Source of the DNA: a virus
Lineage: Duplodnaviria; Heunggongvirae; Uroviricota; Caudoviricetes
Reading direction: 5' to 3' (one strand)
IMG/VR virus record: IMGVR_UViG_3300031647_000750
Location: 128,025 to 192,024 of that record
DNA: 64,000 bases
The notes beneath the pieces were generated by a model that made no database searches, had not been told where the DNA came from, and saw only the letters and a program-made list of their open reading frames with translations. Shown here in pieces: positions 8,949-41,751 of the stretch (position 1 is its first letter; the number at the start of each line of letters is the position of its first letter). Made by a program: the position numbers and the translations under genes.

Positions 8949-10382
8949 ATGACAGAAAAGAAATTACCATCAGATACGTTTTGTATTCTACCTTGGATAC
9001 ATTTGAGTACTCGCCCAGACGGCAGTATGAGAGTATGTTGTACAGCAAATGCAAGTAGTGTTGGTGCAACAAATGATAAAGTTCACGGTGGGCGAGTTGG
9101 CATTGTTAAGACAGATGATGGTAAGCCTGCAAACCTAAACAACAGTGACTTGTCTAGTGCATGGAACAATAGTTACATGCGTGGTGTACGTCAACAAATG
9201 CTTGCAGGAGAAAAGCCTGCTAGTTGTTTGAAATGTTACAAAGAAGAAGATGCAGGACATCGATCTAAGCGACAGTGGGAAACCCAGTACTGGATGCGTG
9301 ATGGAATTGATGTTGATGAACTTGTTAAAGAAACATATGAAGACGGTTCAACTGATTCAAAACTACGATACATTGATATCCGTATGGGTACTAAATGCCA
9401 ACTTGGTTGCGTTATGTGTAGTCCACACGATTCATCAGGATGGGTAAAAGATTGGAATAAGTTGTATCCACAGATTACCAATGAGTCACTAAAAGAAACA
9501 ATGTCTTGGGATGATAAAGGCAAGCAGTTTGGTGCTAATTATAACTGGCATAAAAACAACCCACAGTTTTGGGAACAATTTTATGCTCAAATTCCATTCA
9601 TGCGTCAACTATACTTTGCAGGCGGCGAATCGACGGTTATCGAAGAGCATTATGAAATCCTAGATAAAGTTATTGAAATGGGTTATGCATCTCAGATTGA
9701 GTTGCGTTACAACAGTAATGGCATTGAATTGCCTGATCGTCTACTAGAGCAATGGAAGCATTTCCAAAAGGTACGTTTCCATTATAGTATTGACAGTATT
9801 GGTGAAATGAATGATTATATTCGTTACCCAAGTGAATGGTCACATCAACTTGCAATGTTTGAGCGTCTTGATACACAGACTTCTAACAACGTAGAGATTA
9901 CAATCGCGTGTGCAGTTAACGCACTAAACATTCACTACATTCCAGACTTCCTTAAATGGAAACTGCAATCAGACTTGAAGAAGACAAACATGTGGCCCTT
10001 TGGCGCTGGTGGCATTAACTATCACTTTGTATACTGGCCAGGACATTTGAATGTCAAGGTATTGCCAGATGAGTTCTTAGACAAAACCGAAGCGAAGTAT
10101 GAAGAGTTCATTGCATGGTGGAAAGAGAATTGGGAACTAGGTGTTCCAAGTTGGCACAAGGGTAAAGTAGATTATCAGAAATGGGAAGATGCTGAATATG
10201 GCATCAAGCGTTTACGTGGTATGATTAGTTTTGCTCGTAGTGAAGATTGGAGTCAGCGATTACCAGAGTTTAGAGAATACATTAACAAACTAGACGAGAT
10301 GCGCGGCACCGATTTCAGAAAAACATTTGCAGACATGGCTTACTTATTAGACGAGCCTACAGAGGACAATGATAGTGACTGA
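8949..10382 (+). CDS. Radical SAM enzyme, long form (paralog A), with an N-terminal RxCC motif and a central CxxxCxxC motif
   Basis: KCQLGCVMC is a C-x3-C-x2-C motif; FAGGESTV is a GGE motif; the N-terminal LPWIH..DGSMRVCC is shared with paralog B. Confidence 0.7.
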   Translation: MTEKKLPSDTFCILPWIHLSTRPDGSMRVCCTANASSVGATNDKVHGGRVGIVKTDDGKPANLNNSDLSSAWNNSYMRGVRQQMLAGEKPASCLKCYKEEDAGHRSKRQWETQYWMRDGIDVDELVKETYEDGSTDSKLRYIDIRMGTKCQLGCVMCSPHDSSGWVKDWNKLYPQITNESLKETMSWDDKGKQFGANYNWHKNNPQFWEQFYAQIPFMRQLYFAGGESTVIEEHYEILDKVIEMGYASQIELRYNSNGIELPDRLLEQWKHFQKVRFHYSIDSIGEMNDYIRYPSEWSHQLAMFERLDTQTSNNVEITIACAVNALNIHYIPDFLKWKLQSDLKKTNMWPFGAGGINYHFVYWPGHLNVKVLPDEFLDKTEAKYEEFIAWWKENWELGVPSWHKGKVDYQKWEDAEYGIKRLRGMISFARSEDWSQRLPEFREYINKLDEMRGTDFRKTFADMAYLLDEPTEDNDSD

Positions 10383-10923
10383 TGTAATACCAGTATTAAT
10401 TGCGTTAGAAGTGGAATTGCCCTATGAATTACCGACACCATATGTTAAAATAGTAACAGGTGTCGGTAAGATCAAAGCGACAATGGCAGCAATGGAAGCA
10501 GTATTTAAGTACAATCCTCATACCATTATCAATATGGGTACTGCGGGCAGTTTAGATCCTGATTTAGCACTAGGTGTACATGAAGTTAGTACCGTAGGTC
10601 AACGAGATATGGATGCATCGCCTTTAGGTTGGAAAGTAGGACAGACTCCGTTCACTGGTGAATTATGGATAGATCTAAAACTTAGTGGTGTTTCATTGAC
10701 TAGTGGTGATAACTTTGTCACAAGTCAGCCACCATTGAGTAGTACACTGGTTGATATGGAAGCATATGGTATTGCAATGGTATGCAAAAAGTATAAAGTT
10801 ATCTTTGATTGCTATAAGTACGTATCAGACTTTGCAGATGAAGATTCAACTACAGACTGGGAACAGAATTGCTCCGATGGTGCAAATGAATTCATGAAAA
10901 TATTATCAAATCGTAGCGAGTAA
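10369..10923 (+). CDS. 5'-methylthioadenosine/S-adenosylhomocysteine/5'-deoxyadenosine nucleosidase (Pfs/MtnN, PNP_UDP_1 family)
   Basis: TGVGKIKATMAAMEAV...INMGTAGSL and MEAYGIAMVCKKY align with Pfs GIGKVNAA..INTGSAGGL and EMEAAAIAQV. Confidence 0.6.
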   Translation: MIVTDVIPVLIALEVELPYELPTPYVKIVTGVGKIKATMAAMEAVFKYNPHTIINMGTAGSLDPDLALGVHEVSTVGQRDMDASPLGWKVGQTPFTGELWIDLKLSGVSLTSGDNFVTSQPPLSSTLVDMEAYGIAMVCKKYKVIFDCYKYVSDFADEDSTTDWEQNCSDGANEFMKILSNRSE

Positions 10924-10926
10924 ATA

Positions 10927-12492
10927 ATGTTAGATGTTGTCATGTTGGCGTATGGTGAACCAAACGCTGATCAAAATTTCAAAAGAATACAGAAATTAGC
11001 ACCCAATGCGAAGAGGGTAGATAATGTCGTCGGGATTTTAGAGGCACATCAAGCAGCAGCAAAATTGGCAACTACTGATAATTTTTATGTAGTAGATGCT
11101 GACGCGGTGTTATCTGAGCATTTTAATTTCTCATTCACACCTGATATCATTAAAGAATCGTATCCGGGTGTGAATGAATCAAGTTGTGTATTCGTATGGC
11201 AGAGTGTTAATGCAGTCAATGGATTGATTTATGGTTATGGTGGAGTAAAGTTATTCCCTAGACATAAGTTATTGAATGCGAAATCATTTCAGATAGATAT
11301 GACCACAACAATAGATGCACCATTAGTAGTGAAGCAACAAATATCTAATATAACCGAATTCAATACAGATGAATTCAGTACATGGCGCAGTGCATTCCGT
11401 GAGTGTACAAAACTAGCATCTAACCCCACTCCAGATATGGATGATCGATACAGATTAGATGTATGGTGTACTCGTGGAGATAGCAGTGCCCATGGAAAAT
11501 ATGCTATAATGGGTGCTAGACAAGGACGAGAGTTCGGTGCATTTTACAAAAATGATAAGAAAACTCTAGATAAAATAAACGATTTCACTTGGTTAACCAC
11601 TACATTTGACAAGTCATCAGTGCATACAATAGATCAGCATCACCCAATTCATTTATCATGGTTTCATGGACTAGAAGAATATTTTACATTGTCATCCGTA
11701 GAATCATACTATGCAGTATTTATTAAACTAAAGAATGCACTGGTATACGGTGATAACTGGGGCATTCGCGATCTTATTTTAGAAGAAGTAAATATAGGTA
11801 AGAATGAAGACACTGAACTTTATGTTAATGTAATACTTCAATCATTATTAATAGATGATTATGTAATACCAGATCATCAAGTATTGGAATATATTAATCG
11901 CAATATTAATGATAATTTTATATATGGATTGATGAAATTGTCTGACCCATCGCATGGTAATATTGATCTAGTAGATTTTATCACACGTGATTCGATGATA
12001 GGCAAGTCTTGGATGATTGAAGAATTAAGTAAGACAACGTTGGAACCATCTGATGTTGTAATATTGGGTGGTAACATATGCACCCATTCATCTATGTTAA
12101 TTAATAATTATGAAACAATTGAATCTATACTTAGTGTGGATATAGATCATAAGACAACAGAGTATGCTCGTTTGTTAAATCATATAGCAGAATCTGACGA
12201 ATTATTCAGTGCACAAACCAATGATGTATCTGATATAATATGGGATGAATCATCTCTGCCTGATTTATTGATAAACACTAGTTGCGCACATATGGATGAT
12301 ACATGGTTTGACAATATACCAGATACTGATGATACTTTGATAGTAATACAGACAAATGATTTTTCAGATAATATGAACTGCGTTAAAGATCTGTCTACCG
12401 CCATGACTAAATACCAAATGAAAGAAGTATTATTTAGTGGTGAACAAAGCACACAGTTATATAATAGATTTATGATTATAGGAATCAAGTAA
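10927..12492 (+). CDS. Two-domain protein: N-terminal GT-A (family 2-like) glycosyltransferase-like domain fused to a conserved C-terminal Rossmann-like (methyltransferase-like) domain
   Basis: N-terminal VVMLAYGEP...VVDADA (DxD). The C-terminal 150 aa are paralogous to the C-terminus of ORF 33512 (VILGGNICTHS / NTSCAHMDD / RFMIIGIK). Confidence 0.5.
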   Translation: MLDVVMLAYGEPNADQNFKRIQKLAPNAKRVDNVVGILEAHQAAAKLATTDNFYVVDADAVLSEHFNFSFTPDIIKESYPGVNESSCVFVWQSVNAVNGLIYGYGGVKLFPRHKLLNAKSFQIDMTTTIDAPLVVKQQISNITEFNTDEFSTWRSAFRECTKLASNPTPDMDDRYRLDVWCTRGDSSAHGKYAIMGARQGREFGAFYKNDKKTLDKINDFTWLTTTFDKSSVHTIDQHHPIHLSWFHGLEEYFTLSSVESYYAVFIKLKNALVYGDNWGIRDLILEEVNIGKNEDTELYVNVILQSLLIDDYVIPDHQVLEYINRNINDNFIYGLMKLSDPSHGNIDLVDFITRDSMIGKSWMIEELSKTTLEPSDVVILGGNICTHSSMLINNYETIESILSVDIDHKTTEYARLLNHIAESDELFSAQTNDVSDIIWDESSLPDLLINTSCAHMDDTWFDNIPDTDDTLIVIQTNDFSDNMNCVKDLSTAMTKYQMKEVLFSGEQSTQLYNRFMIIGIK

Positions 12493-13805
12493 TGAACGAT
12501 GACGATATAAAGAACAATGACACAGATAATGGGTTTTGCGCACTGCCATTTGTACAATATAGTACATTCAATGGGGGTCGTTATCGATTATGTTGTATGG
12601 CAAAGGAACCTAGTGAACTTATTAATCAAGAAGAACTAGGCATAGATGGAACATGGAATCATGATTACATTCGTAGTGTTCGTGAGCGTATGGCTACGGG
12701 CGAATGGCTACCAGAGTGTATAGAATGTAAAAGATTAGAACGTAACGATATTATAAGTTCTCGTCAATGGGAAAACTATTCATGGAAAGATCAGGTTCCA
12801 GATATTGTAGCATTGGCAAGTGCAAATGATTGGAATATAGAACAGCCTCTACAATTTGATTTTAGATTAGGTAATTTGTGTAATCTACAATGTCAGATGT
12901 GTAACAAAGAAGCATCGCATTTAGTAAGTGTTGAGCGTGCCAATATGATTGCAACAGATTTGGGTCCCAAATCTCCTAACTTAGATAGATATGATTGGGA
13001 CAATAATATTGCTAATAAAAAGAAAGCGATAATTCAGCCTGGCATCGATTGGGATAGTTTTGATAAGATGCTGCCATATGCACAGACGATTAAAATGATT
13101 GGCGGCGAACCAACTGTTGTATCTGATATGTTCAAGTTGCTAGACAGAGCAACTGAATCCGGATACGCAAAAAATATTACATTATCGTTCTACACGAACA
13201 TCACCAATATGCAAGATAGATGGTTGAAGCAATTTAGTCAGTTTAAGCAAGTTGTTGTAAATTGCTCATTAGAGGGCATGGGTGATATGAATGATTATTT
13301 ACGTCCGCCATCGCAGTGGGATTCAGTATGGGAAAATTTTGATAAGTTAGTAAAGTATTCAAATACATCAGAAGGAAAGAACATTCGTGTACGTGTCACT
13401 ACGGTGAATCAAGTAACAAACGCGTTGCATTTGGTTCCATTCTGGAGATTTATGCACGATTATCAACAGACTAATGACCGTACCATCGGCATGAGTACGA
13501 ATCAATTGGTAGAACCTGAATATTACTCAATGGCGCATAGTCCCCAATGGTTGCGTGATGAACAGAAATCACAGATACTAGAATTTTTAGAAGAGATAAA
13601 AGATAGTCCTCATTATGAAGATTATTCACGTCCGTTAATGGAAGCATTGCATTTTGGCGAAGATCCAGAAACCAAGTATGATCGTGGATTTATGAGGGAT
13701 TATGTTCAAGTAACAGAAAACTATGATAAGCATCGCGGACATGATGTGATGTCAGTAGCACCTGAATTTAGCCGAATTAAATCAGATTTAGAACTTGACA
13801 AGTAA
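12492..13805 (+). CDS. Radical SAM enzyme, long form (paralog B)
   Basis: LGNLCNLQCQMC is a C-x3-C-x2-C motif; MIGGEPTV is present; the N-terminal LPFVQY..GGRYRLCC is shared with paralog A. Confidence 0.7.
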   Translation: MNDDDIKNNDTDNGFCALPFVQYSTFNGGRYRLCCMAKEPSELINQEELGIDGTWNHDYIRSVRERMATGEWLPECIECKRLERNDIISSRQWENYSWKDQVPDIVALASANDWNIEQPLQFDFRLGNLCNLQCQMCNKEASHLVSVERANMIATDLGPKSPNLDRYDWDNNIANKKKAIIQPGIDWDSFDKMLPYAQTIKMIGGEPTVVSDMFKLLDRATESGYAKNITLSFYTNITNMQDRWLKQFSQFKQVVVNCSLEGMGDMNDYLRPPSQWDSVWENFDKLVKYSNTSEGKNIRVRVTTVNQVTNALHLVPFWRFMHDYQQTNDRTIGMSTNQLVEPEYYSMAHSPQWLRDEQKSQILEFLEEIKDSPHYEDYSRPLMEALHFGEDPETKYDRGFMRDYVQVTENYDKHRGHDVMSVAPEFSRIKSDLELDK

Positions 13806-13813
13806 GGAAATAA

Positions 13814-14482
13814 ATGACATCAACTAATATGGAATATTTAACTGAGATAGATTTTGCATTAACCACATATTGTCAAGCACGATGTAGAAGTTGTGCTAGA
13901 ACGAATCAACATACTGGTGAAAAAGAAGATTGGTTAGAACTCAAGCATATGAATCTAGATGTGTTTAAACGAACTCTTGCAGCATCTACTAATATAAAGT
14001 ATAATCTAATTGAGTTTTGTGGCGAGTTGGGCGATCCCATGATGCATCCACAAGTTGACAAATTTATAGAAACTGCATTAGAATATGCACCATCAATATT
14101 AATATCAACAAATGGTGCGCTTAGAAATGCAAACTGGTATAAGACGATAGCAGAAAAATACACAGACGATGTCTTTATAAATTGGGCAATTGATGGAGCA
14201 ACACATGACACCAATTGGAAGTATAGAGAAGGTGTTGATTTTAATAAAGCTTTTGAAAATATGAAAACTCACACTCAATCAGGTGGGGATGGTGAATGGC
14301 GATATTTAATATTTGAGTGGAATTGGCATGAAATACCGCTAGCACGTCAAATGGCAAAAGAGATTGGAATTAAAATTATTTTTTGCTTCAATAATAGAGA
14401 TTTTGGATTAATAACACCAGATTCTAGATTGGATGCAGAAAAATTATTAATAGGAGTGAGTCCAGATGACATCAAAGGGTAA
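13814..14482 (+). CDS. Radical SAM enzyme, short form (paralog C), N-terminal catalytic part only
   Basis: TTYCQARCRSC is a C-x3-C-x2-C motif and EFCGELGDPMMHP is present. The product ends where paralogs D and E continue into a (W/Y)PCC domain. Confidence 0.6.
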   Translation: MTSTNMEYLTEIDFALTTYCQARCRSCARTNQHTGEKEDWLELKHMNLDVFKRTLAASTNIKYNLIEFCGELGDPMMHPQVDKFIETALEYAPSILISTNGALRNANWYKTIAEKYTDDVFINWAIDGATHDTNWKYREGVDFNKAFENMKTHTQSGGDGEWRYLIFEWNWHEIPLARQMAKEIGIKIIFCFNNRDFGLITPDSRLDAEKLLIGVSPDDIKG

Positions 14483-14876
14483 ATATAATATTGAATGTCA
14501 ATCATTCGAAGCTCTAAATGAATTTACTAACCTCCCTGTAAGAAAATGGGAAGTAACACCAGAAGGAAGAGTGTGGCCATGTTGTTATTTTGCAAATGCA
14601 TGGGATAGACGACATATGATGAGGGCAGATGAATTGGGTCCCGATGAAGATTCTAGTGAAGAAGATTTTCATAATGTAAATGGTGAATCAGCAGAATTAT
14701 TGAATGATGCTAGAATGATGACTATAATAAATGAAGATCCTGATTGGAATAGTTTAGAACATCACTCTATAGAAGAAATCATAGCGCACGAAGTATTCCA
14801 CAGTTACATCTGGACTGAAGGATGGAATAGCGATAATCCTGCGATATTGTGTGTTAATAATTGTAATAAGTGTTGA
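14466..14876 (+). CDS. C-terminal WPCC-motif domain homologous to the C-termini of radical SAM paralogs D and E, encoded as a separate ORF overlapping 13814..14482 by 17 nt
   Basis: TPEGRVWPCCYFANAWD aligns with DGKVYPCCMFYA (22211) and WGTVWPCCHISNHA (37417). Confidence 0.5.
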   Translation: MTSKGKYNIECQSFEALNEFTNLPVRKWEVTPEGRVWPCCYFANAWDRRHMMRADELGPDEDSSEEDFHNVNGESAELLNDARMMTIINEDPDWNSLEHHSIEEIIAHEVFHSYIWTEGWNSDNPAILCVNNCNKC

Positions 14877-22210: not shown

Positions 22211-23236
22211 ATGTATGACATTAAAACAATAGAATTGGAATTAGCAACTGTGTGCAATGCATATTGTCCCGTATGTATTCGCTATGATGCAAGAGACGAA
22301 GGTTTATTTTTAAACCCCAAAGCCAATCTTAATCAATTGATAGATCTAGATACTATCGACAAATGTTTTAAATCAGACAAAATACCCGATGACGTAGAAG
22401 TGAGTCTAGTTGGTACTTCTGGCGATCCACTTGCTCATCCTAAAATTTTAGATATTATCAAATTGATATTACATCATAAGTCGCATGCAACATTTAATAT
22501 CCATACTAATGGTGGACTTAGATCAACAAAATTATTCGCTGAACTTGCACATATATTAGGAGATGGCGATAGGTTTTGTTTTAGTTTAGATGGGTTAGCA
22601 GATACCAACCATATATATCGAATAGGGGTTGACTTCAAGAAAGTAATATCTAATATGACTGCATTCATTGAAGCGGGCGGCACACCAATTTGGCAATTTG
22701 TGATATTTGATTGGAACAAACATCAGATAGAAGAATGTAGAAAATATGCATTTGATTTAGGCTGTAGAGCATTTGAGTCTCGCGAAAATGTCAATCCCGG
22801 GCTTATAGATGTCGCCATCGCATCTGCAAATAAGCAGATAGTTAATGCTGTATCTCCATCGTTTTATTCTGATAGTATGGTCGAGTCTGATGATTATGAT
22901 TACATAGACGATGCGTGTATTCAAGAACAAGGAATATTCATGGCACCAGATGGTAAAGTATATCCTTGTTGTATGTTCTATGCGGAACGTGCGGGTCCAG
23001 GTTCTACATTGGTGTACGATACCATGTATAAGAAGTTTGGATATGATTGGAATGATTTAACTATATATTCACTAGATCAGATTCTAGATCATGCTTGGTG
23101 GGATGAACTACATACCAGCATAGTTAAAAGTCCATGTGTTACATGCATCAATAACTGTGGTGCTGTTCGTGATGAACGTAGTAATTCTGACATAAACGAA
23201 AAGGCATATCAAAATATTTCAAGGACATTAATATGA
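22211..23236 (+). CDS. Radical SAM enzyme, short form (paralog D), with a C-terminal YPCC domain
   Basis: ATVCNAYCPVC is a C-x3-C-x2-C motif; LVGTSGDPLAHP is present; C-terminal DGKVYPCCMFY plus CVTCINNC. Confidence 0.7.
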   Translation: MYDIKTIELELATVCNAYCPVCIRYDARDEGLFLNPKANLNQLIDLDTIDKCFKSDKIPDDVEVSLVGTSGDPLAHPKILDIIKLILHHKSHATFNIHTNGGLRSTKLFAELAHILGDGDRFCFSLDGLADTNHIYRIGVDFKKVISNMTAFIEAGGTPIWQFVIFDWNKHQIEECRKYAFDLGCRAFESRENVNPGLIDVAIASANKQIVNAVSPSFYSDSMVESDDYDYIDDACIQEQGIFMAPDGKVYPCCMFYAERAGPGSTLVYDTMYKKFGYDWNDLTIYSLDQILDHAWWDELHTSIVKSPCVTCINNCGAVRDERSNSDINEKAYQNISRTLI

Positions 23237-31720: not shown

Positions 31721-31747
31721 ATAGACAACTGGTAACTTTACACTAAC

Positions 31748-33262: not shown

Positions 33263-33279
33263 TCAATTACATTAAACCC

Positions 33280-33339
33280 TTGACAAGTAAGGCTTATTGT
33301 TATATAATATTTATATAATTTAATCAAAAGGAAGTTATC
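33280..33339 (+). promoter_or_regulatory. Conserved promoter plus leader cassette variant (TTGACAAGTAAGG-17-TATAAT ...AAAAGGAAG)
   Basis: Family member. Confidence 0.55.
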
Positions 33340-33483
33340 ATGGAATTATCAAACGCAGATCTTTTATCATATGTAATGGTTTCAGCAATTCTTACGTATG
33401 CACTGTTTTGGATGCCTTATGTTATCATCAAGTCGATGTCGGCAAAGTGGAAACAAATCACTCAAGGAAAAGTAACAGAATAA
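33340..33483 (+). CDS. Small membrane protein (47 aa)
   Basis: ATG after the leader RBS; single TM segment. Confidence 0.35.
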   Translation: MELSNADLLSYVMVSAILTYALFWMPYVIIKSMSAKWKQITQGKVTE

Positions 33484-33511
33484 TGTACATTTTAACTCAA
33501 GGAATCATTTA

Positions 33512-34762
33512 ATGCAACCGTTTGAACTATTGGATAGGTTTGAACTGATGTACCCTAACAACAGTAAGTTATCAGATCTGCGTAGGGCATACATTGACAA
33601 AGATCTAAGTAGTATCTTTCGATTACTACCAGCAGGACATAACGACTTACGTAAGGCAGTGATAGAACAAAACTTACATAGTATCTTTCGATTACTACCA
33701 GAAAAACATGAAGACTTACGTAAGGCGGTGATAGAACAAAACTTACATAGTATCTTTCGTTTGCTACCAGCAGAGCATGAAGAACTAGGCAGAGCAGTGA
33801 TAGAACAAAACTTGCATAGTATCTTTCGATTACTACCAAATGTTAGTAATGATGATCTTGAAGACTTACGTAAGGCAGTGATAGAACAAAACTTGCATAG
33901 TATCTTTCGTTTGCTACCAGACGAGCATGAAGAACTAGGTAGAGCAGCAATAGAACAAAACTTACATAGTATCTTTAGACTAGTAGACGATGAAGACTTG
34001 CGTAGAGCAGTGATAGAACAAAACTTGCATAGTATCTTTAGACTAGTAGATGATGAAGAATTACGCAAACTACTATTAGAAGATAATATTTGGAAGTTAT
34101 GGCCTGTACTATCTAGATACACTGATACACAGTTCGTTGAAGCATTCAAAAACTTCTTTGTCAATGATACTGAGATATGGGATGATTGTTTCGCAAGAGG
34201 ACAGTTAGAAAGTAAACTATGGTTAGTGCGTGAATTGCAACAATGTAATATACCACTAGGCACTGTGTTTATTTGTGCGGGCTGGTATGCAACTATCGCT
34301 ACTATGTTGTTTGAGAGCGACATGGAAATAGATAAGATTCGCAGTTTTGATATTGATACTACTTGTGCAGAAATCGCAGAAGTGTTTAATAAGCCTTGGG
34401 TAGTAGATGGATGGAAGTTTAAAGCGGCTTACAAAGATATACACGATATTGATTTCACAGGAAAAACACCCTATAGTGTTTATAAATCAAATGGCGAAGA
34501 GCAATTGTTATGTGATAGTCCAGACACTGTTATAAACACAAGTTGTGAGCATATTGATAACTTTGAAGCATGGTATTCCAAGATACCAGATGGTAAATTG
34601 GTGATATTACAAAGTAATAACTTCTATGAAGTGGATGAACACGTAAATTGTGTTGCAGATGTTGATGAATTTATTGACACTGCGCCTATGAGTACTGTAT
34701 TGTACAGTGGAGAATTAGAGTTGCCTAAGTATACTAGGTTTATGATAATTGGATATAAGTAA
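33512..34762 (+). CDS. Two-domain protein: an N-terminal array of about 8 tandem 19/20-aa helical repeats (DLRKAVIEQNLHSIFRLLP) fused to the conserved C-terminal Rossmann-like domain shared with ORF 10927
   Basis: Protein and DNA repeats visible. The C-terminal VFICAGWYATIA / VINTSCEHIDN / RFMIIGYK is collinear with the ORF 10927 C-terminus. Confidence 0.5.
   Translation: MQPFELLDRFELMYPNNSKLSDLRRAYIDKDLSSIFRLLPAGHNDLRKAVIEQNLHSIFRLLPEKHEDLRKAVIEQNLHSIFRLLPAEHEELGRAVIEQNLHSIFRLLPNVSNDDLEDLRKAVIEQNLHSIFRLLPDEHEELGRAAIEQNLHSIFRLVDDEDLRRAVIEQNLHSIFRLVDDEELRKLLLEDNIWKLWPVLSRYTDTQFVEAFKNFFVNDTEIWDDCFARGQLESKLWLVRELQQCNIPLGTVFICAGWYATIATMLFESDMEIDKIRSFDIDTTCAEIAEVFNKPWVVDGWKFKAAYKDIHDIDFTGKTPYSVYKSNGEEQLLCDSPDTVINTSCEHIDNFEAWYSKIPDGKLVILQSNNFYEVDEHVNCVADVDEFIDTAPMSTVLYSGELELPKYTRFMIIGYK
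33590..34080 (+). repeat. Tandem 57-63-bp coding repeats (about 8 units)
   Basis: Repeated gtgatagaacaaaacttacatagtatctttcgattactacca units. Confidence 0.8.
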
Positions 34763-34788
34763 ATTAATCAATAATATTGGAGAGTAAC

Positions 34789-34905
34789 ATGGATGACAAA
34801 CATTTAATATGGGGTACTATTGTACTGTTTATTGCATTTTGGGGTGAGCCTGACTTGCTTGATAGTGCGATTTCTTATTTAACCTATGCATCTGGCGGTA
34901 GGTAG
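34789..34905 (+). CDS. Small membrane protein (38 aa)
   Basis: RBS ggagag; hydrophobic core. Confidence 0.3.
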   Translation: MDDKHLIWGTIVLFIAFWGEPDLLDSAISYLTYASGGR

Positions 34906-34906
34906 T

Positions 34907-35227
34907 ATGGACGAGTTAAAGAATGCAGGTGATGTGGTAGAGAGAGCATTATTACATGCATACCAGCAGTCGAGTCATAACATGGAGTCTACTATGCAAA
35001 TAGACGCAATGTACCCACAAACTATTTATAATAGTGATGGTGTATCAGTTCAAAGATATACTGTCGTGGCTTCTACATTATCTGCATCTGGTAATACCAC
35101 AGTGGTATGCTTTGGTATGGTTTTACAGTATGTTATTACAACTCCTAATACCAAATTTTATGAAGACTTAAAAGATAATATATTGGTGCTGGATCAAGAT
35201 GTTGCAGGATGGTTATATAATGATTGA
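34907..35227 (+). CDS. Hypothetical protein
   Basis: In-frame ATG right after the upstream stop (track ORF 34886). Confidence 0.35.
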   Translation: MDELKNAGDVVERALLHAYQQSSHNMESTMQIDAMYPQTIYNSDGVSVQRYTVVASTLSASGNTTVVCFGMVLQYVITTPNTKFYEDLKDNILVLDQDVAGWLYND

Positions 35228-35504
35228 TCTAATGCAAGCGAATCCGCGATTAACTATTGTTTTACTTGCTACAATTGTATATGCATTGGCTTACTGGATG
35301 GGACGAAATTCTTGTCAAAGTATGATTGACGATGCGGTGCAAGCATCTGTTGCAGTCTCAATAAAAATAACAACAGAAACGGTAGTCAATGAACTTATTG
35401 ATGCTGGTTATATTTGCTGTCGTGAGGAAGAAGAAGATGGTGAGATTGTATCTTACATGATTACATATGAAGAATATATTGCTTCAAATCCTCAAACTAA
35501 ATAA
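35199..35504 (+). CDS. Hypothetical protein with an N-terminal TM segment
   Basis: ORF. Confidence 0.35.
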   Translation: MLQDGYIMIDLMQANPRLTIVLLATIVYALAYWMGRNSCQSMIDDAVQASVAVSIKITTETVVNELIDAGYICCREEEEDGEIVSYMITYEEYIASNPQTK

Positions 35505-35508
35505 TACT

Positions 35509-36345
35509 ATGACAAGACTAGCAAAAGATAGTGTCGCACAAGATGACATTAAAGTAACCATTTTCAATCCAACCGATATTACTGAAATAGCAGATACAGA
35601 CGAATTATATAATGCGTTTGAATCTGGTTGGCCCGTGGTCATATCTGGATTAAAGATCCCTGGCATTGATTACGATTATTATAACGATTTGCCAGATTGG
35701 GTAATCGAAGATAATAAATGGATTGCACCTTGGTATCCAAGTGATATTCGTAAACGAGATAGGTTACGCAACGAGCGAGATTGGTCAGAAGAACAGATTG
35801 ATGAATTCGCACAGCAACACAAAGAATCAAATAAAGCATGGAATAATTTCTTTGCTGAGTTGATGCCTCGTTATGCAAATGCAACGGGTAAAAGTGTTAG
35901 TCACCGATACAATATGTTAGTTGAAAACAATTTACACTTCGACGAACTAGACCAAGAGCATACTGGACAAGAACAACAGATTCGTGTATTGACTAACATG
36001 GATAAACAACGCTGTCGTATTACTGCGGTAGGTCCTAACATAGAACAATTGTATAATAAATACTATGATGAATTTAAGTTATGGGAATTAGATAAAGAAG
36101 ACCCGCACGCATTCATTACAGAAATGCGCAATCGTTGTATTTGGAACGATAAAAATTGGTCACATTTCCACCACCCATTGCATTATATAACATGTGATCC
36201 AGGTGATATTTGGTTACTCAATGCACAGTGGGTATCACATCAAATTGTATTCGGAGCAAAGTTACAAGTATTCGAAGCAGATATTCAGAAAGAACACATG
36301 CTAAACCCAGAGTTGGTTATGGCAGAACGTATTAAAAATTTATAA
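35509..36345 (+). CDS. Hypothetical protein
   Basis: ATG at 35509 after the upstream stop; the track ORF from 35467 overlaps the previous gene. Confidence 0.4.
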   Translation: MTRLAKDSVAQDDIKVTIFNPTDITEIADTDELYNAFESGWPVVISGLKIPGIDYDYYNDLPDWVIEDNKWIAPWYPSDIRKRDRLRNERDWSEEQIDEFAQQHKESNKAWNNFFAELMPRYANATGKSVSHRYNMLVENNLHFDELDQEHTGQEQQIRVLTNMDKQRCRITAVGPNIEQLYNKYYDEFKLWELDKEDPHAFITEMRNRCIWNDKNWSHFHHPLHYITCDPGDIWLLNAQWVSHQIVFGAKLQVFEADIQKEHMLNPELVMAERIKNL

Positions 36346-36355
36346 GGAATAACAT

Positions 36356-37420
36356 ATGAACGCAGTTAACGCTTGGACAGAGTTTCAACCATTGAAGAAA
36401 GTAGTATTGGGTGCACCATTCCCAGAAACTGCATTTGATTGGCACGAAGATGAAGAGACACGAGACACTATGCGACAAATCTTCCGTGAAACAGCCGAAG
36501 ATATTGAAGTATTAGCACAACTATTAGAAGCACGTGGAATTGAAGTGGTACGTCCCAAGAACATCTTTACAATCACTGGTGAAGAACAGATTCAATTACC
36601 GTGGGCTCATTGTGCGTTTCCGAACCATCCATTAATGCCGCGCGATACGTTGATGCCATATGGTCATTCAATTTTTGAATGCTTTACAGGCGGTGACAAT
36701 CGTTACTTTGAAAACCTAGCATACTATGATCACGTAGTAGAATGGTTTAAACAAGGTGCTGATTGGATTTCAATGCCTGGCTGCATGGTAGAAACTGGTA
36801 AAGGATATGATGAATACGTAGCAGAGCAGCGTGTACTGTATCATGCTGCAAATATGATCAAGTGTGGTGATACTATCTTATTCAGTCAACCATACGAAGG
36901 TGACAACAAGCGTGGACGTGGTACGAATTTGGGCAAGGAATGGATGCAAAGAGAAATCAAACAGCGTTATCCTGATACTAAATTTATTGATATTCCAATT
37001 GGTGGTCACATAGATGGTAAGATTGCATTATTGAAGCCGGGTGTTCTTATGACGTGGAACAAAGCATGGGTCCCAGAAGAATTCAAGAATTGGACAATCA
37101 TTGAAGTAGAAGATGATTTTGACATGCCAGCAGATTTTCAAAATACACGTAAGCGTAGATACTATAAAGAGTATGTACAGAAGTGGTTAAGTCATTGGGT
37201 AGGTTATGCAGACGAGTCTGTATTTGATGTTAATGTATTATCATTGGATGAAAAGACGGTAATCTGTACAGGTAAAAACGATGCAGCATTTGCTGAAATG
37301 GAAGCAAACGGAATTGAACCAATTGTTTGGCGATTCCGTCATCAGTATTTTTGGGATGGTGGTATCCATTGCTTGACTAGTGATATCGTACGTGAAGGTA
37401 ATTGTGAGAATTATTTATGA
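36356..37420 (+). CDS. Amidinotransferase-fold (pentein superfamily) enzyme, agmatine/arginine deiminase-like
   Basis: C-terminal WDGGIHCLTSD matches the catalytic-Cys signature GG(N/G)IHC(I/M)T of agmatine and peptidylarginine deiminases; upstream Asp/His-rich segments. Confidence 0.45.
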   Translation: MNAVNAWTEFQPLKKVVLGAPFPETAFDWHEDEETRDTMRQIFRETAEDIEVLAQLLEARGIEVVRPKNIFTITGEEQIQLPWAHCAFPNHPLMPRDTLMPYGHSIFECFTGGDNRYFENLAYYDHVVEWFKQGADWISMPGCMVETGKGYDEYVAEQRVLYHAANMIKCGDTILFSQPYEGDNKRGRGTNLGKEWMQREIKQRYPDTKFIDIPIGGHIDGKIALLKPGVLMTWNKAWVPEEFKNWTIIEVEDDFDMPADFQNTRKRRYYKEYVQKWLSHWVGYADESVFDVNVLSLDEKTVICTGKNDAAFAEMEANGIEPIVWRFRHQYFWDGGIHCLTSDIVREGNCENYL

Positions 37421-38475
37421 GTATGCTATGGCGTGATAATATACAAAGCCTACAAGTAGATGTTACTAGTTATTGTAATGCTAAGTGTGGTGGATGCGCT
37501 AGAAATGACGACGGTCATGAAACAAGACCGGGTCTTATTCTTGAAAACTTTGATGTTGATGTATGGAATCGTATGGCAGAGCATGATACCAAAGATATTT
37601 TTATTAATGAACTGGTATTAAACGGGAATTGGGGTGACTCTATGATGCATCCTAAAATTAAAGATATGGTTACAACATTTGCAAAATTTCATCCAGAAGC
37701 GAGTTTATATATTCATACCAATGGCAGTATGCGCACGACCAAATTCTGGGCTTCTTTTGCCAAAGTTTGTCGTCAATTCTCAAATCATCGTGTAGTTTTT
37801 GCAGTAGACGGTCTAGAAGATACACATGCGATATATCGTCGTAATACCGACTTTCTTAAAATTATGGAGAATATTAAAGCATTCACCGATGCGAATGGAC
37901 GAGCGAGTGTAACCATGACCCTATTTGAACACAATAAACATCAAGTAGAAGAAGTTAAAAAATTAGCACAATCGCTTAATGCAGATTTTGCCTTACGTTA
38001 CAGTCATGGAGATGAACTAGAAGTAATTGCGCCTGGCGAAAATTATATGATATATGCATGTGATGAATTGCCCGAAGAGGAGGTAGAAGTAGAAGTAGAG
38101 CATGATAATGAAGTAGAGCATGATAATTATAGATTAAGTGATTTACCAAATTATATGGATAATCTAATTATATCAGATGCAATAGAACCTGTCGCATCAA
38201 CATGTCCGTGGTTAGCAGATCGTCAAGTGCAAATTGATCCATGGGGTACGGTGTGGCCATGTTGTCATATTAGTAATCATGCAAATTCCTTTTCATCAGA
38301 GTATACTGGGATCGCCGCAACTGATGATAATTTCGATGAAGGTAAACTAGCAAATAACCTGAAGCATACGCCGTTATATGATATCCTTAGTAATCGGTGG
38401 TATGCGGATGTGTTACCTGATGCGGTAAAACATGAAAAATGGCTAGTTTGTCGTGATTCATGCTTTAGTGATTAA
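37417..38475 (+). CDS. Radical SAM enzyme, short form (paralog E), with a C-terminal WPCC domain and an acidic (EVEVEHDN)2 insert
   Basis: VTSYCNAKCGGC is a C-x3-C-x2-C motif; LNGNWGDSMMHP is present; C-terminal WGTVWPCCHISNHA...CRDSC. Confidence 0.7.
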   Translation: MSMLWRDNIQSLQVDVTSYCNAKCGGCARNDDGHETRPGLILENFDVDVWNRMAEHDTKDIFINELVLNGNWGDSMMHPKIKDMVTTFAKFHPEASLYIHTNGSMRTTKFWASFAKVCRQFSNHRVVFAVDGLEDTHAIYRRNTDFLKIMENIKAFTDANGRASVTMTLFEHNKHQVEEVKKLAQSLNADFALRYSHGDELEVIAPGENYMIYACDELPEEEVEVEVEHDNEVEHDNYRLSDLPNYMDNLIISDAIEPVASTCPWLADRQVQIDPWGTVWPCCHISNHANSFSSEYTGIAATDDNFDEGKLANNLKHTPLYDILSNRWYADVLPDAVKHEKWLVCRDSCFSD

Positions 38476-38479
38476 AGTG

Positions 38480-38508
38480 TTGACATACACCACCAATTGC
38501 TGTATAAT
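38480..38508 (+). promoter_or_regulatory. Promoter AAGTGTTGACATAC-17-TATAAT
   Basis: Consensus hexamers. Confidence 0.5.
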
Positions 38509-38538
38509 ATGTATATACATTAATAACTTGAGAGAAAT

Positions 38539-38892
38539 ATGAAGAATTATATAATAATTAACACTGTATTTGCACTCGCAATCTACTTAGGATTATACAG
38601 TGGACTTGACAATGTGTTATCAAGTCTTGCGATTGGATACGCATATGCAACCGCATGGATCGCCATTGTGCTTGGTTTGCTTGTTGGTTGGTTTTTGTAT
38701 GATGAAATGGTTGAACAAATACAAAATTCCGATGGTTGGAAACCACCTCTTTATTTTGATACATTATTCGACATAGCAGTTATCATAGCCTTTGCATATG
38801 TGGAATCTTATGTTACTGCGGTATTATATACGGCGCATTTACTTATGTGGAACGATATGCACAATACTGCAAGAAAATTAAATCTTAAATAG
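38539..38892 (+). CDS. Small polytopic membrane protein
   Basis: 3-4 hydrophobic segments. Confidence 0.4.
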   Translation: MKNYIIINTVFALAIYLGLYSGLDNVLSSLAIGYAYATAWIAIVLGLLVGWFLYDEMVEQIQNSDGWKPPLYFDTLFDIAVIIAFAYVESYVTAVLYTAHLLMWNDMHNTARKLNLK

Positions 38893-38956
38893 TATGTTAT
38901 TAACTTGACATAATATATAAATAATAGTATAATAACTTCTACGATAGGAATTACGA

Positions 38957-39403
38957 ATGGCATATTTTTCAAAAAAACACTATGGTCATAGCATTGGGTT
39001 ATCCTCAGTATTCAGGCAGCCGAATGCAGATCATTCACATTGTCACCTACTACATGGGTATAGTTTAGCATTTACATTTACATTCGGTTGTACCGAACTA
39101 GATGATAAGAACTGGGCTGTTGACTTCGGTGGATTAAAACCATTGAAGAAATGGCTTGAAGACAACTTTGATCATAAGACTGCAATTGACAAAGATGATC
39201 CGTTCTTAGCAAAGTTTATGGAACTTGAAGAATTAGGATTAGCAGAGATTGTAGTAATGAATGGTGTTGGTACAGAGAAGTTTGCTGAACATGCATTTAA
39301 CTTTGCAGATGATCTTGTTCGCAAGATGACTAGTGATCGTTGTTATTGTGTACGGGTAGAATGTGCAGAACATGACTCAAATTCAGCAGTATACGAACGA
39401 TAG
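38957..39403 (+). CDS. 6-pyruvoyl-tetrahydropterin synthase / QueD-like (6-carboxytetrahydropterin synthase family)
   Basis: HCHLLHGY aligns with QueD C-x3-H-G-H, and AVDFGGLK with IDFAELK. The third His is replaced by Tyr. Confidence 0.55.
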   Translation: MAYFSKKHYGHSIGLSSVFRQPNADHSHCHLLHGYSLAFTFTFGCTELDDKNWAVDFGGLKPLKKWLEDNFDHKTAIDKDDPFLAKFMELEELGLAEIVVMNGVGTEKFAEHAFNFADDLVRKMTSDRCYCVRVECAEHDSNSAVYER

Positions 39404-39437
39404 AAGTATTAATTAATAATATATTAGGAGAAGTAAA

Positions 39438-39659
39438 ATGTTACAAGCAATTTTAAAATGGTTAGGATTCCCATCAGCAAATACAATGAATAAGGTTGAA
39501 CCTACATTCACATCATTACACACAGAAGATAGTTTATCTGGACTAACAAAGTCAAAATTAAAGACACTGGGTGAGACTAAATTTGATGTTGAATTCAAAT
39601 CAAGTGATCGTAAAGTTGAAATGATTATGCGTATCTTAGCAGCACAATCGGAAAAATAA
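39438..39659 (+). CDS. Hypothetical protein
   Basis: ORF with RBS aggagaag. Confidence 0.4.
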   Translation: MLQAILKWLGFPSANTMNKVEPTFTSLHTEDSLSGLTKSKLKTLGETKFDVEFKSSDRKVEMIMRILAAQSEK

Positions 39660-40025
39660 ATGACATATATCGTAGATGATTCTTGCATTAAATGTAAGTA
39701 CACGGACTGCGTAAGTGTGTGTCCCGTTGATTGCTTTTATGAAGGTGAAAACACTCTTGTAATTAATCCAGACGAATGTATCGACTGTGGTGTATGTGAA
39801 CCCGAATGTCCAGCAGGTGCAATTCATCCTGATACTAACTTAGATCCCACGGGACCTGATTGGGTGGAGATTAATCGTAAGTATAGCGAAGATCATAACT
39901 GGCCTGTTCTAACCGTACAGAAAGATGCATTACCAGATGCTGATTTGTTTAATCCAAAGAAAGGATACACGGGTCCAAGTAAGTTGATTGATTTAATTGA
40001 AATGGCTGGTCCTGGAGATCAGTAA
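39660..40025 (+). CDS. fdxA: 7Fe ferredoxin (FdxA, Azotobacter-type [3Fe-4S][4Fe-4S])
   Basis: [28 protein letters not shown]...[14 protein letters not shown] is nearly collinear with the FdxA consensus. Confidence 0.8.
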
Positions 40026-40546
40026 TGAAATATAGTAACTTTATTAGAACAGTACCAAATTATCCAATTGATGGTGTTAATTTCTATGATGTGAATAGTC
40101 TATTCGCTGATAACAAACTGTTCAGTGTGATGATAGATGATATGGCAGATAAGTTATCACTTGTTGATGATAAGTACCCAACGCATATCGCAGGATTAGA
40201 AAGTCGTGGTTTTGTAATAGGTGCTGCATTGGCATACAAAATGGGATTACCATTCGTAATGATTCGAAAGAAAGGTGCGAAATATCCTGGCGATCTATTA
40301 GAACAAAGTTATGGTACAGAATATTCAACAGATACCATTGTATTACAAGAAGGGTTGCTAAGTCACACTGATCGTGTTATACTAGCAGATGATCTAATCG
40401 CAACAGGCGGTAGTATGATGGCAGCACGCTCACTGGTTGAATCAACTGGCGCTAAAGTAGTAGGCATTGGTGTAATCATTGATCTATTTTATGTGCATTG
40501 CAAAGAATATGACTTATTAAATGTCATAGCATTAGACACTGTATAA
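40025..40546 (+). CDS. apt: Adenine phosphoribosyltransferase
   Basis: IAGLESRGFVIGAALA and VILADDLIATGGS (PRPP-binding motif) match Apt. Confidence 0.75.
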   Translation: MKYSNFIRTVPNYPIDGVNFYDVNSLFADNKLFSVMIDDMADKLSLVDDKYPTHIAGLESRGFVIGAALAYKMGLPFVMIRKKGAKYPGDLLEQSYGTEYSTDTIVLQEGLLSHTDRVILADDLIATGGSMMAARSLVESTGAKVVGIGVIIDLFYVHCKEYDLLNVIALDTV

Positions 40547-40581
40547 GGAAGACAGTGAGTAGTATATAAGGGAGAACGATC

Positions 40582-40983
40582 ATGATTGAAATAACAAAAA
40601 AAGCACAAGAGTATATGACCACTATCGCGACAGGTGACAATGAAATAGTTAAACTTGCGCTTGAAGGTGGTGGTTGTTCTGGATTCCAATATTCGTGGAA
40701 CATCATCGATAAAGATGGTATCGATGAAATGAGCGATGAGGTTATGACGTTTGAAGATGGTGGTGGACTAATCATAGACGGTATGAGTCTGATGTATTTG
40801 TTCGGTAGTGAAATTTCATTAGAATCAAATCTAATGGGTACAAAACTAATCATAAGCAATCCACAAGTAACCAGTTCATGTGGTTGTGGCGATAGCGTCA
40901 ACATAGATACTGGAGCAGCATCTTGTCCCAAAGAAGAACCAGCAGCATATAATGCGGATATGTTTTACGATCCCTCAGAGTAG
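40582..40983 (+). CDS. A-type Fe-S cluster carrier (IscA/HesB family), second copy with a C-terminal extension
   Basis: C-S-G...S-S-C-G-C-G cysteine triad. Confidence 0.65.
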   Translation: MIEITKKAQEYMTTIATGDNEIVKLALEGGGCSGFQYSWNIIDKDGIDEMSDEVMTFEDGGGLIIDGMSLMYLFGSEISLESNLMGTKLIISNPQVTSSCGCGDSVNIDTGAASCPKEEPAAYNADMFYDPSE

Positions 40984-40989
40984 TAAAAA

Positions 40990-41751
40990 ATGAAGAAAAT
41001 AGCAATTATCGGTTGCTCACATAGTTATTATCTCGAATGTGATAAGAACTGGACAACTATGTTTCCAGAAGATTACATTATTCACAACTATTCAGCGGCT
41101 GGTCATGGCGTTCAATATTTTGATTTTGTACTAAAGTATATTGTTGCAAATAAACTAGATTACGATTGCGTAATCATTCAACTGACAAGTAGTACACGTT
41201 GGCAATTTCCTATTACAGGACATACCTCAGATAAGTTACGAACAGATGAGATATCTGATAGATATATAAATTATTCATTTAACTATGCACATGTACTCGC
41301 ACATGAATCAATGGATTTTGAAGATTTATACGAAAATCATGAACTATCATTTCTCGATGACATTTCAATAATTAATGACAGCATGATACAACCATGTGAT
41401 AATATAGAAGATACCAATTTTAAAGAGTTCCCGATTAATAGGTCTACTAGCGACACATGGACCTCTGAATATTATAATTTATTCACACAAACATTGCATA
41501 TGTATGAACATCATTTTCCTAATGTATTTTGGTGGAGATTTGCAAATGAATCTATTAATAATATTGGTCATGATACCACCGCATTAGAAACAGTAATAAA
41601 ACATGAAGAATTATATGGTGATTTGAATGATATCATTGATGATACATTACATTTAACACCACTAGGATATCGTATTCTATTTGATGAATACATAATGAAG
41701 AGTAAAATTGGCGATTACGTAAGGAGTAATACAAATGACAAATCCATTTAA
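40990..41751 (+). CDS. Hypothetical protein, paralog of ORF 43515 (shared N-terminal IAIIGCSHS/ILIVGTSHS and C-terminal L(T/N)P(L/E)G(Y/H) motifs)
   Basis: Pairwise similarity visible by eye at both termini. Confidence 0.4.
   Translation: MKKIAIIGCSHSYYLECDKNWTTMFPEDYIIHNYSAAGHGVQYFDFVLKYIVANKLDYDCVIIQLTSSTRWQFPITGHTSDKLRTDEISDRYINYSFNYAHVLAHESMDFEDLYENHELSFLDDISIINDSMIQPCDNIEDTNFKEFPINRSTSDTWTSEYYNLFTQTLHMYEHHFPNVFWWRFANESINNIGHDTTALETVIKHEELYGDLNDIIDDTLHLTPLGYRILFDEYIMKSKIGDYVRSNTNDKSI

Follow-up and report, generated by a model that had tools for sequence, protein, structure and literature searches.

A 64 kb stretch of tailed-virus DNA (IMG/VR record IMGVR_UViG_3300031647_000750, positions 128,025 to 192,024; hereafter the window), in which all genes lie on the + strand, was analysed around a group of genes at 35509 to 39403. 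The core of the system found there, from 35509 to 38475, is a cassette of a KdoO-like dioxygenase, an amidinotransferase and a radical S-adenosylmethionine (SAM) enzyme of the SPASM/twitch type; a phage-type QueD gene lies further downstream behind a promoter of its own. An earlier, sequence-only reading had joined the amidinotransferase, the radical SAM enzyme and the QueD-like protein in one operon, possibly for a deazapurine/pterin-type or amidino modification. The explanation favoured here, although held with somewhat less than even confidence, is that two unrelated things stand side by side: a cassette that would carry out multi-step tailoring, amidination included, and an independently promoted QueD. 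All five of the open reading frames (ORFs) named in that reading were found where, and in the order in which, it had placed them, on the + strand; the four that concern the argument most are as follows.

35509..36345, + strand: KdoO-like Fe(II)/2-oxoglutarate dioxygenase, 278 residues, assigned from an invariant H143-x-D145...H244 motif

36356..37420, + strand: AGAT/StrB1/HsvA-family amidinotransferase, 354 residues, assigned from full-length homology and catalytic residues

37417..38475, + strand: radical SAM enzyme with a SPASM/twitch-type C-terminal domain, 352 residues, assigned from Pfam and motif

38957..39403, + strand: phage-type QueD/PTPS-fold protein, 148 residues, assigned from PTPS and phrog_2389

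The product of ORF 36356, whose C-terminal end reads ...WDGGIHCLTSD, matches solved members of the AGAT family over its full length: HsvA (5wpi) at 1.3e-28 (query residues 19-354), SxtG (6u1r) at 1.8e-19, StrB1 (1bwd) at 1.9e-18 and human AGAT (1jdw) at 3e-14, all of which share with it the Cys-His-Asp set and the C-terminal GG-x-HC-x-T. Four residues are invariant in 16 aligned relatives, down to 28% identity, namely D97 (in PRD), H218 and D220 (in GH-DG) and C339 (the HC of GGIHCLT); they align with the MPRD, HID and FHC motifs of HsvA and StrB1 and are predicted to be the catalytic set of the family. Because of the full-length homology together with this Cys-His-Asp set, ORF 36356 is assigned as a pentein-fold AGAT-type amidinotransferase, and the earlier identification of a pentein enzyme with its catalytic cysteine in GGIHCLT is borne out. 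It differs from the solved members in its low identity to them and in the lack of a PF02274 match; no Pfam match was obtained at E<=0.1 (the PF02274 gathering score was not reached), nor any match to NCBIfam or to a named PHROG, and one relative (P0036) carries a precomputed PF02274 match. Relatives occur in at least 562 viral contigs, and the viral subfamily has invariant motifs of its own, RH(Q/R)YFWDG and E(T/S)xFDVN. There is no second amidinotransferase paralogue in the window, though some relatives carry one.

Enzymes of the AGAT type pass the amidino group of arginine to an amine, and by analogy a ping-pong amidino transfer from arginine is expected of ORF 36356, so that an amidino modification of some substrate, as suggested earlier, is plausible. 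The archaeosine synthesis step is a different reaction, in which a nitrile becomes an amidine. Consideration of ORF 36356 as ArcS was rejected, as it is AGAT-like instead and has no DUF5591/C1 domain with the PC-x3-KPY-x2-S-x2-H motif.

The start of ORF 37417 overlaps the stop of ORF 36356 in ATGA. Its product scores 35.4 bits against Radical_SAM in Pfam (cutoff 29.5) and, marginally, 22.1 bits against SPASM (cutoff 21.5), and contains a CX3CX2C motif (C20, C24, C27) followed by five further invariant cysteines, where the full SPASM motif has seven; it is thus of the SPASM/twitch type. It reaches no curated NCBIfam family cutoff, and in this it stands apart from the SPASM/twitch enzymes SuiB, SkfB, anSME, BtrN, BlsE, DesII and MoaA. 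One relative, P0307, is a fused protein of 583 residues whose extra N-terminal half carries no Pfam domain. The earlier assignment as a radical SAM enzyme is therefore correct, but the QueE role considered with it is not: no QueE model occurs among the best 25 of its 26 NCBIfam matches, no QueE chain was returned by phmmer or profile searches of the PDB, a profile built from 30 relatives found only SkfB, MoaA and BtrN among PDB sequences, and three QueE structures scored 9.7, 6.8 and 6.1 against it, QueE not being the closest fold.

The longest ORF possible for the dioxygenase begins at 35467. The alignments of its 104 database relatives, at 95% coverage, begin only near residue 15, and therefore 35509 is the likely start. 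The H143-x-D145...H244 motif, an HxD...H iron triad, is invariant among the relatives, and the closest match to its double-stranded beta-helix fold is KdoO (5y9i), the Fe(II)/2-oxoglutarate-dependent 3-hydroxylase of 3-deoxy-D-manno-octulosonic acid (Kdo) in lipopolysaccharide, with which it shares 14% identity. JmjC-type protein hydroxylases form a second tier of matches. Searches of Pfam, NCBIfam and PHROG gave no match and a profile search of PDB sequences was empty; also, no Kdo-pathway genes lie near the ORF. The dioxygenase stop codon is separated from the ATG of ORF 36356 by a spacer of 10 nucleotides (GGAATAACAT).

The question of whether these genes form a single operon with the QueD-like gene was approached through promoters, since with every gene on the + strand a shared direction is uninformative about operon membership. 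A TTGACA-N17-TATAAT consensus scan and an exact search were made across the whole window. It is clear that perfect sites are far more frequent than chance would provide: 14 were observed where 0.04 were expected, all 14 are on the + strand and, as far as placed, all fall between ORFs. An extended form, TTGACAAGTAA, is common to many of them, and judged by sequence they look like the early promoter set of the phage. The sites, and the remaining ORFs of this region, are listed here.

3928, 14873, 18280, 21745, 24972, 32613, 33280, 38480, 38905, 43319, 45674, 51082, 53743 and 59293, + strand: perfect TTGACA-N17-TATAAT sites, from the exact search

33280..33308, + strand: perfect sigma-70-type promoter by consensus match, the last one upstream of the cassette

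33512..34762, + strand: 416-residue protein (ORF) with about eight tandem 24-residue repeats and a 230-residue C-terminal domain, a possible cassette member

34886..35504, + strand: two small overlapping ORFs of 113 and 101 residues, the second with a hydrophobic segment, preceding the dioxygenase

38480..38508, + strand: perfect sigma-70-type promoter by consensus match, the 3' boundary of the cassette

38539..38892, + strand: hydrophobic membrane ORF of 117 residues with its own promoter, outside the cassette

38905..38933, + strand: perfect sigma-70-type promoter by consensus match, just upstream of the QueD-like gene

Promoter 38480 begins 5 nucleotides past the radical SAM stop codon, and promoter 38905 sits 24 nucleotides ahead of the QueD-like start. 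As these are the next perfect promoters after that at 33280, the promoter-defined unit of the amidinotransferase runs from 33280 to 38475, and promoter 33280 is probably where a transcription unit begins whose last gene is that of the radical SAM enzyme. This unit holds the three cassette genes, preceded by the 416-residue repeat protein and the small ORFs. The membrane ORF heads a unit of its own and the QueD-like gene heads another, in which ferredoxin, apt, an IscA-type gene and a MazG-like gene follow, up to the perfect promoter at 43319; transcription of the QueD-like gene would not, on this arrangement, depend on the unit upstream. The single operon proposed earlier is thus split by the promoters at 38480 and 38905, and the functional link drawn between amidinotransferase, radical SAM enzyme and QueD loses its footing, both from these promoters and from the rarity of co-occurrence described below. 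The neighbouring genes named earlier are real: FdxA, adenine phosphoribosyltransferase, an IscA/ErpA-type protein, a MazG-like (PRA-PH) protein, phosphoribosyl pyrophosphate synthetase and a metallophosphoesterase.

The neighbourhood of the amidinotransferase was compared in 85 loci, over up to 10 kb on each side; a non-redundant subset comprised 24 loci with an amidinotransferase at least 33% identical and a distant set of 31, in which ORFs of at least 150 residues within 10 kb were counted. Radical SAM-like ORFs account for 128 of 417 (31%) in the 24 closer loci, as against 18 of 463 around the distant homologues and 9 of 953 around QueD-like genes, and a radical SAM gene is the immediate neighbour in 16/24 of the closer loci compared with 0/31 of the distant ones. 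The radical SAM paralogues of the window find matches in up to 47 of the 85 loci. In a Pfam census of 149 neighbours, Radical_SAM is present in 62 and SPASM in 36, and the 25 commonest of the 35 families matched include none of PTPS, QueC, QueE, TGT and FolE. Only one of the 85 loci has a QueD-like gene within 10 kb of the amidinotransferase relative.

The KdoO-like dioxygenase adjoins the amidinotransferase in 14 loci and in both orientations; since it is sometimes on the opposite strand, a functional link rather than mere co-transcription is indicated. A recurrent family of about 308 residues, found two genes downstream of the amidinotransferase in 12 loci and with no copy in the window, was tried as a homologue of the KdoO-like protein and rejected (hhalign probability 0.2%). 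The surroundings of distant homologues (<31% identity) are heterogeneous, with DUF6614, ATE_C-like and DUF6267 genes, DUF6614 recurring in 6 of 149 neighbour proteins; the census there supports neither a radical SAM theme nor a sugar theme as general. The 416-residue protein, whose repeats read ...LRKAVIEQNLHSIFRLLP..., has homologues near the amidinotransferase in 10 of the 85 loci. The small ORFs at 34886..35504 have no homologue in the more distant loci, and the membrane ORF at 38539..38892 has no family match and no match across 165 related loci.

The QueD-like gene itself belongs to the QueD/PTPS family, as the earlier reading had it. It scores 57.7 bits against PTPS (PF01242; cutoff 22.4) and matches phrog_2389, 'QueD-like', at 6e-38; the NCBIfam QueD model TIGR03367 gives 34.4 bits against a cutoff of 89.25. 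Its closest homologues in isolates, at 44-52% identity, are QueDs encoded in FolE-QueD-QueE(-QueC-DpdA) clusters, those of Cellulophaga phage phiST, Pseudomonas phage Iggy and Synechococcus phage BUCT-ZZ01. Its motif is C-HLL-HGY (C-x3-HGY) as compared with the canonical C-x3-HGH; the same F and Y substitutions are seen in phage QueDs of complete deazaguanine clusters, in an alignment whose E. coli reference was entered by hand, and because phage QueDs share it the C-x3-HGY form appears typical of the phage family rather than a sign of decay. Relatives occur in at least 590 viral contigs, the best 80 being 76-86% identical. Within 10 kb of the gene in those 80 loci, FolE is found in 21, QueE in about 20 and an XGPRT-like gene in 14; an amidinotransferase is found in 4. 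By our own estimate, co-occurrence of 1/85 and 4/80 is about what random placement in a genome of around 300 kb would produce.

An alternative account would have the amidinotransferase, the radical SAM enzyme and the QueD-like protein cooperate in 7-deazaguanine or pterin chemistry, for example by turning an aminomethyl-deazaguanine into a guanidino derivative in phage DNA or tRNA. The kinship of the QueD-like protein with QueDs of genuine deazaguanine clusters speaks for it, as does a further ORF and the few loci, listed below, in which distant amidinotransferase relatives do lie beside 7-deazaguanine genes.

20297-21028: ArcS-core (DUF5591) ORF of 243 residues inside the tRNA array (DUF5591 5e-9, PDB 2q07 1.5e-5, NCBIfam ArcS alpha 2e-5)

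L053 8977-11014, L090 10001-11023, L155 7175-8191 and L176 7191-8189: distant amidinotransferase relatives beside 7-deazaguanine genes

The ArcS-core ORF has a degenerate motif (LCTATRPYNKSKKW), which can be written LC-TAT-RPY-NK-S-KK-W. In phages ArcS2 and DpdA2 together make 2'-deoxyarchaeosine (dG+), and Firehammerviruses that carry an amidinotransferase-radical SAM module have 2'-deoxy-7-amido-7-deazaguanosine (dADG) in their DNA (PMC10516641); the published dADG pathway of one of these, CP220, nevertheless proceeds without an amidinotransferase (PMC10516641). In L053 and L090, where the relatives are 27-29% identical, the order is FolE, GMP reductase, XGPRT-like, YhhQ-like transporter, cupin, amidinotransferase (two genes in L053, one in L090), DUF6614 and QueE; DUF6614 recurs beside distant relatives, FolE and QueE having turned up only in loci of the L053 type and L090. 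In L155 and L176 it is nucleoside diphosphate (NDP)-sugar dehydratase, amidinotransferase, DegT aminotransferase, FolE, HIT, two QueD and a B12-radical SAM gene, and L155 also carries QueE (L176 ends before that point). In L155 the amidinotransferase is directly flanked by the sugar dehydratase and the DegT aminotransferase, and not by deazaguanine genes. These cases are read as two accessory modules that have come side by side by chance; alternatively, they may reflect a link of amidination to amino sugars or to deazaguanines in other phages.

The remaining genes of such a pathway were sought, as the earlier reading had proposed. FolE, QueE, QueC and DpdA were not detected by phmmer with phage queries against all six-frame ORFs of the window, nor by Pfam in the window with about 4 kb of upstream and about 10 kb of downstream flank, and no QueF was seen in the Pfam annotation. 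On these searches, a phage 7-deazaguanine DNA-modification system is not recognised in this stretch and its flanks. Compared with the FolE-QueD-QueE-QueC-DpdA(+/-ArcS2) clusters of other phages (PMC10516641), the window shares a QueD orthologue and an ArcS-core-like ORF, but here the QueD is clustered neither with the ArcS-like ORF nor with the cassette. Taken with the separate promoter of the QueD-like gene, the near-random co-occurrence, the radical SAM enzyme that is not QueE-like and an AGAT-type chemistry that is not the archaeosine step, a deazaguanine role for the cassette is very improbable. What stands of the earlier proposal is that some 7-deazaguanine-related genes are present (the QueD-like gene and the DUF5591 ORF); their membership of one cassette does not. 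The phage may have some 7-deazaguanine or pterin capability separate from the cassette, and the QueD-like gene would belong to that theme, supplying a 7-deazaguanine or pterin precursor rather than acting as a partner of the cassette.

Under the favoured explanation, in which the cassette carries out multi-step tailoring, it would be transcribed early from promoter 33280; its three core genes are translationally coupled, through the 10-nucleotide gap and then the ATGA overlap. The amidino group of L-arginine would be taken up by Cys339 of the amidinotransferase with release of ornithine, and would then pass to a primary amine of the acceptor to give a guanidino group. The dioxygenase would hydroxylate the same scaffold, and the radical SAM enzyme would carry out on it a step initiated by H-abstraction, which could be an oxidation, epimerisation, decarboxylation or cross-link; it is because of the coupling and the conserved adjacency that a scaffold shared by the dioxygenase and the radical SAM enzyme is suggested. 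The wider radical SAM island would be supported by phage-encoded functions, namely a 5'-deoxyadenosine/methylthioadenosine (MTA) nucleosidase-like protein, IscA, NifS, NifU and ferredoxin.

As to the acceptor, a carbohydrate-type molecule (an amino sugar, an aminocyclitol or an ulosonic acid, either as a free nucleotide sugar or in an envelope glycan) is proposed with low confidence. It is favoured because the dioxygenase most resembles KdoO, a sugar-acid hydroxylase; because of the precedents of StrB1, BtrN, DesII and BlsE, which act on amino sugars, aminocyclitols or nucleoside sugars; and because sugar enzymes flank some homologues. Sugar dehydratases, DegT aminotransferases or glycosyltransferases do so in Synechococcus phage S-SCSM2R, CP220, L053 and L155, and the neighbourhood of L012 includes a gene of the cytidine monophosphate (CMP)-sugar-synthetase family.

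Several observations weigh against this account. The sugar class is a guess by analogy, held with low confidence. The likeness of the dioxygenase to KdoO is structural only, at 14% identity and without a sequence match, and in its fold the radical SAM enzyme is as close to peptide maturases (SuiB, SkfB, anSME) as to sugar enzymes. Sugar enzymes are adjacent to the amidinotransferase in few loci, most of them distant, and are not prominent in either census, and no glycosyltransferase adjoins the cassette in the window. A few viral contigs, those described above, do put distant amidinotransferase relatives beside FolE, QueD or QueE. Finally, a terminator scan found no convincing + strand terminator after 38475, and therefore read-through into the QueD-like gene is possible.

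Peptide maturation and free-amine metabolism are live alternatives; the radical SAM fold does not tell readings in terms of a sugar, a peptide or a free amine apart. In the first of these the target would be a peptide or protein of phage or host, matured in the manner of ribosomally synthesised and post-translationally modified peptides, with cross-linking or epimerisation by the radical SAM enzyme, hydroxylation, and conversion of Lys or Orn to homoarginine or arginine. The best structural and sequence neighbours of ORF 37417 include SuiB, SkfB, anSME, ChlB, PqqE and CteB, the dioxygenase has its JmjC-type second tier of matches, genes of the Asp/Asn beta-hydroxylase family recur in the islands, and arginyl-transferase-like (ATE_C) genes lie near distant homologues. 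Set against these, the surroundings of the cassette yielded no leader peptidase, no exporter and no conserved small ORF resembling a precursor, the small upstream ORFs are not conserved, and the 416-residue repeat protein would appear from its sequence to resemble a helical-repeat scaffold rather than a multi-core precursor. Furthermore, enzymes of the AGAT family are not known to act on peptides. Peptide maturation is accordingly thought unlikely.

Alternatively, the amidinotransferase could serve as an auxiliary metabolic gene, its enzyme using host arginine to form guanidinoacetate, homoarginine or an amidino-polyamine and so redirecting nitrogen or polyamine metabolism; the neighbouring enzymes would then be only loosely related to this role. 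The best solved relative, HsvA, is a polyamine amidinotransferase, and metagenome annotators label relatives 'glycine amidinotransferase'. A strong viral enrichment of guanidinoacetate methyltransferase (GAMT) is, moreover, reported for Arctic viromes (PMC11360552). The window, however, yielded no methyltransferase of the GAMT type; the identity of ORF 36356 to AGAT, HsvA and the other solved members is low; and the coupling to the radical SAM gene, with the conserved radical SAM and dioxygenase adjacency, points to a multi-step tailoring pathway. A role in free-amine metabolism is for these reasons considered distinctly unlikely. The 416-residue protein had been guessed by eye, from a motif, to be a methyltransferase of the GAMT kind; this was rejected, the best PDB sequence for its C-terminal 230 residues having E=0.5 and there being no Pfam match.

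Homologues of the amidinotransferase are found in Campylobacter Firehammerviruses, in Synechococcus phage S-SCSM2R and in marine single-cell viruses. That of CP220 is 27% and that of CPt10 21% identical, over 96-97% of the query, and in CP220 the gene is accompanied by five radical SAM genes, a pair of sugar-transferase-like genes and a gene for a PAP2 phosphatase. In 2010 Timms et al. described, in CP220/CPt10, a putative glycine amidinotransferase that forms an interchangeable module with five radical SAM genes; they proposed for this module only a metabolic advantage in low oxygen and no other function (PMC2853527). The window resembles these phages in that several radical SAM genes surround an amidinotransferase within a variable, accessory part of a large myovirus genome; as in the CP220-type module, the amidinotransferase is flanked by a radical SAM gene (through ATGA) and several paralogues are present. 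It differs in that CP220 adds the two genes here described as nucleotide-sugar-transferase-like and the PAP2 phosphatase, and that no homologue of the KdoO-like dioxygenase could be detected there; host and phage lineage are different, and the radical SAM genes of the window are distributed over several separate blocks. Other reports concern marine T4-like genomes, with 12 radical SAM genes, and pelagimyophages, whose variable regions contain radical SAM cassettes (PMC5332604, PMC7029224).

Among cells the amidinotransferase subfamily occurs mainly in Bdellovibrionales/Bdellovibrionia metagenome-assembled genomes (L011, L093-L101), at 35-49% identity, and the Bdellovibrionia contigs include one of 917 kb. 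The one such locus examined (L011) is rich in radical SAM genes and has genes of the Asp/Asn-hydroxylase family. This occurrence may reflect prophages, gene transfer or a shared strategy of prey or host invasion. It is conceivable, as a distinctly long shot, that the cassette and the radical SAM island build an undescribed guanidino product during jumbo-phage infection, by a chemistry shared with predatory Bdellovibrionia for invading Gram-negative cells. As a candidate product, an amino sugar or ulosonic acid bearing a guanidino group could be part of an envelope glycan or nucleotide sugar; guanidinomethyl-7-deazaguanine in nucleic acid is less likely.

The cassette can be regarded as a marine jumbo-phage member of a phage module noticed in 2010 and never characterised, to which the KdoO-like partner is a newly recognised addition. 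The module is widespread and mechanistically open, and new chemistry is not demonstrated by the present data. Amidinotransferases in the clade of the window are almost always surrounded by radical SAM enzymes, and the same pairing recurs in the Campylobacter phages and in Bdellovibrionia; the phage's own iron-sulphur assembly genes, its ferredoxin and a nucleosidase likely to clear 5'-deoxyadenosine suggest that radical chemistry matters in early infection. With a translationally coupled core of three genes defined, a small and clean construct is available for expression and assay, and the 14-promoter set can be used to delimit transcription units across the window. The placing of QueD outside the core guards against mis-annotation of the module as a queuosine or archaeosine pathway.

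The cassette is one module of a larger accessory island rich in radical SAM genes. The window contains six ORFs of the radical SAM type, and a further two follow shortly after its end, giving at least eight in this genome segment; those away from the cassette, with an associated gene, are given here.

8949..14876, + strand: first radical SAM block of the accessory island, assigned by family matches and possibly linked in function to the cassette

10369-10923, + strand: MTA/S-adenosylhomocysteine (SAH)-nucleosidase-like gene between two radical SAM ORFs

22211..23236, + strand: further radical SAM/SPASM paralogue, 341 residues

L194 16851-20384: two further radical SAM-type ORFs, about 6-10 kb past the right end of the window

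The block at 8949..14876 consists of an N-twitch radical SAM enzyme, the MTA/SAH-nucleosidase-like protein, a 521-residue protein of unknown type, a second N-twitch radical SAM enzyme, and a split radical SAM and SPASM pair; the two N-twitch enzymes match NF033640 at 422 and 291 bits. The nucleosidase-like protein plausibly clears 5'-deoxyadenosine, an inhibitory by-product of radical SAM enzymes. In close relatives (L010, L013, L018 and L037) this block directly adjoins the amidinotransferase. The phage also has an iron-sulphur supply of its own, with two IscA/ErpA-type proteins, a NifS-like cysteine desulfurase, NifU and FdxA (17796-18119, 39660-40983, 61655-63343), and a gene for an FNR-like NAD-binding protein lies just past the end of the window.

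By clamp-loader identity (53%) the closest isolates are PA5oct-like Pseudomonas jumbo phages, which have the arrangement FolE-QueD-x-S21-x-QueD and no amidinotransferase. At the DNA level the sole match among isolated phages is one of 79 nucleotides inside the QueD-like gene. Rfam at gathering thresholds found only tRNAs in the whole window, and at E<=1 it found nothing within 32500-41000, hence no preQ1, guanidine or SAM riboswitch there. The tRNA array, at 16239-22134, has 18 genes by ARAGORN, including His, Asn and Asp tRNAs (queuosine-type anticodons), to which Rfam adds a tRNA-like match at 17590-17672; scattered among the tRNA genes are the DUF5591 ORF, an IscA-type gene and a gene for an alpha/beta hydrolase.

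The repeats of the 416-residue protein probably account for a 272-residue antisense ORF at 33505-34323. Elsewhere in the window are two ClpP paralogues, ClpX, ClpS, IF3 and ribosomal protein S21 (25033-25647, 29750-32139, 44617-45297). An ORF of the dCMP-deaminase family at 3199-3705 matches the NCBIfam anti-phage dCTP deaminase at 8e-21, far below the cutoff of the model. Lastly, an ORF of 172-176 residues at 42530-43060 matches only a fragment of DNA polymerase III alpha (PF07733), and may be a split or remnant polymerase gene.

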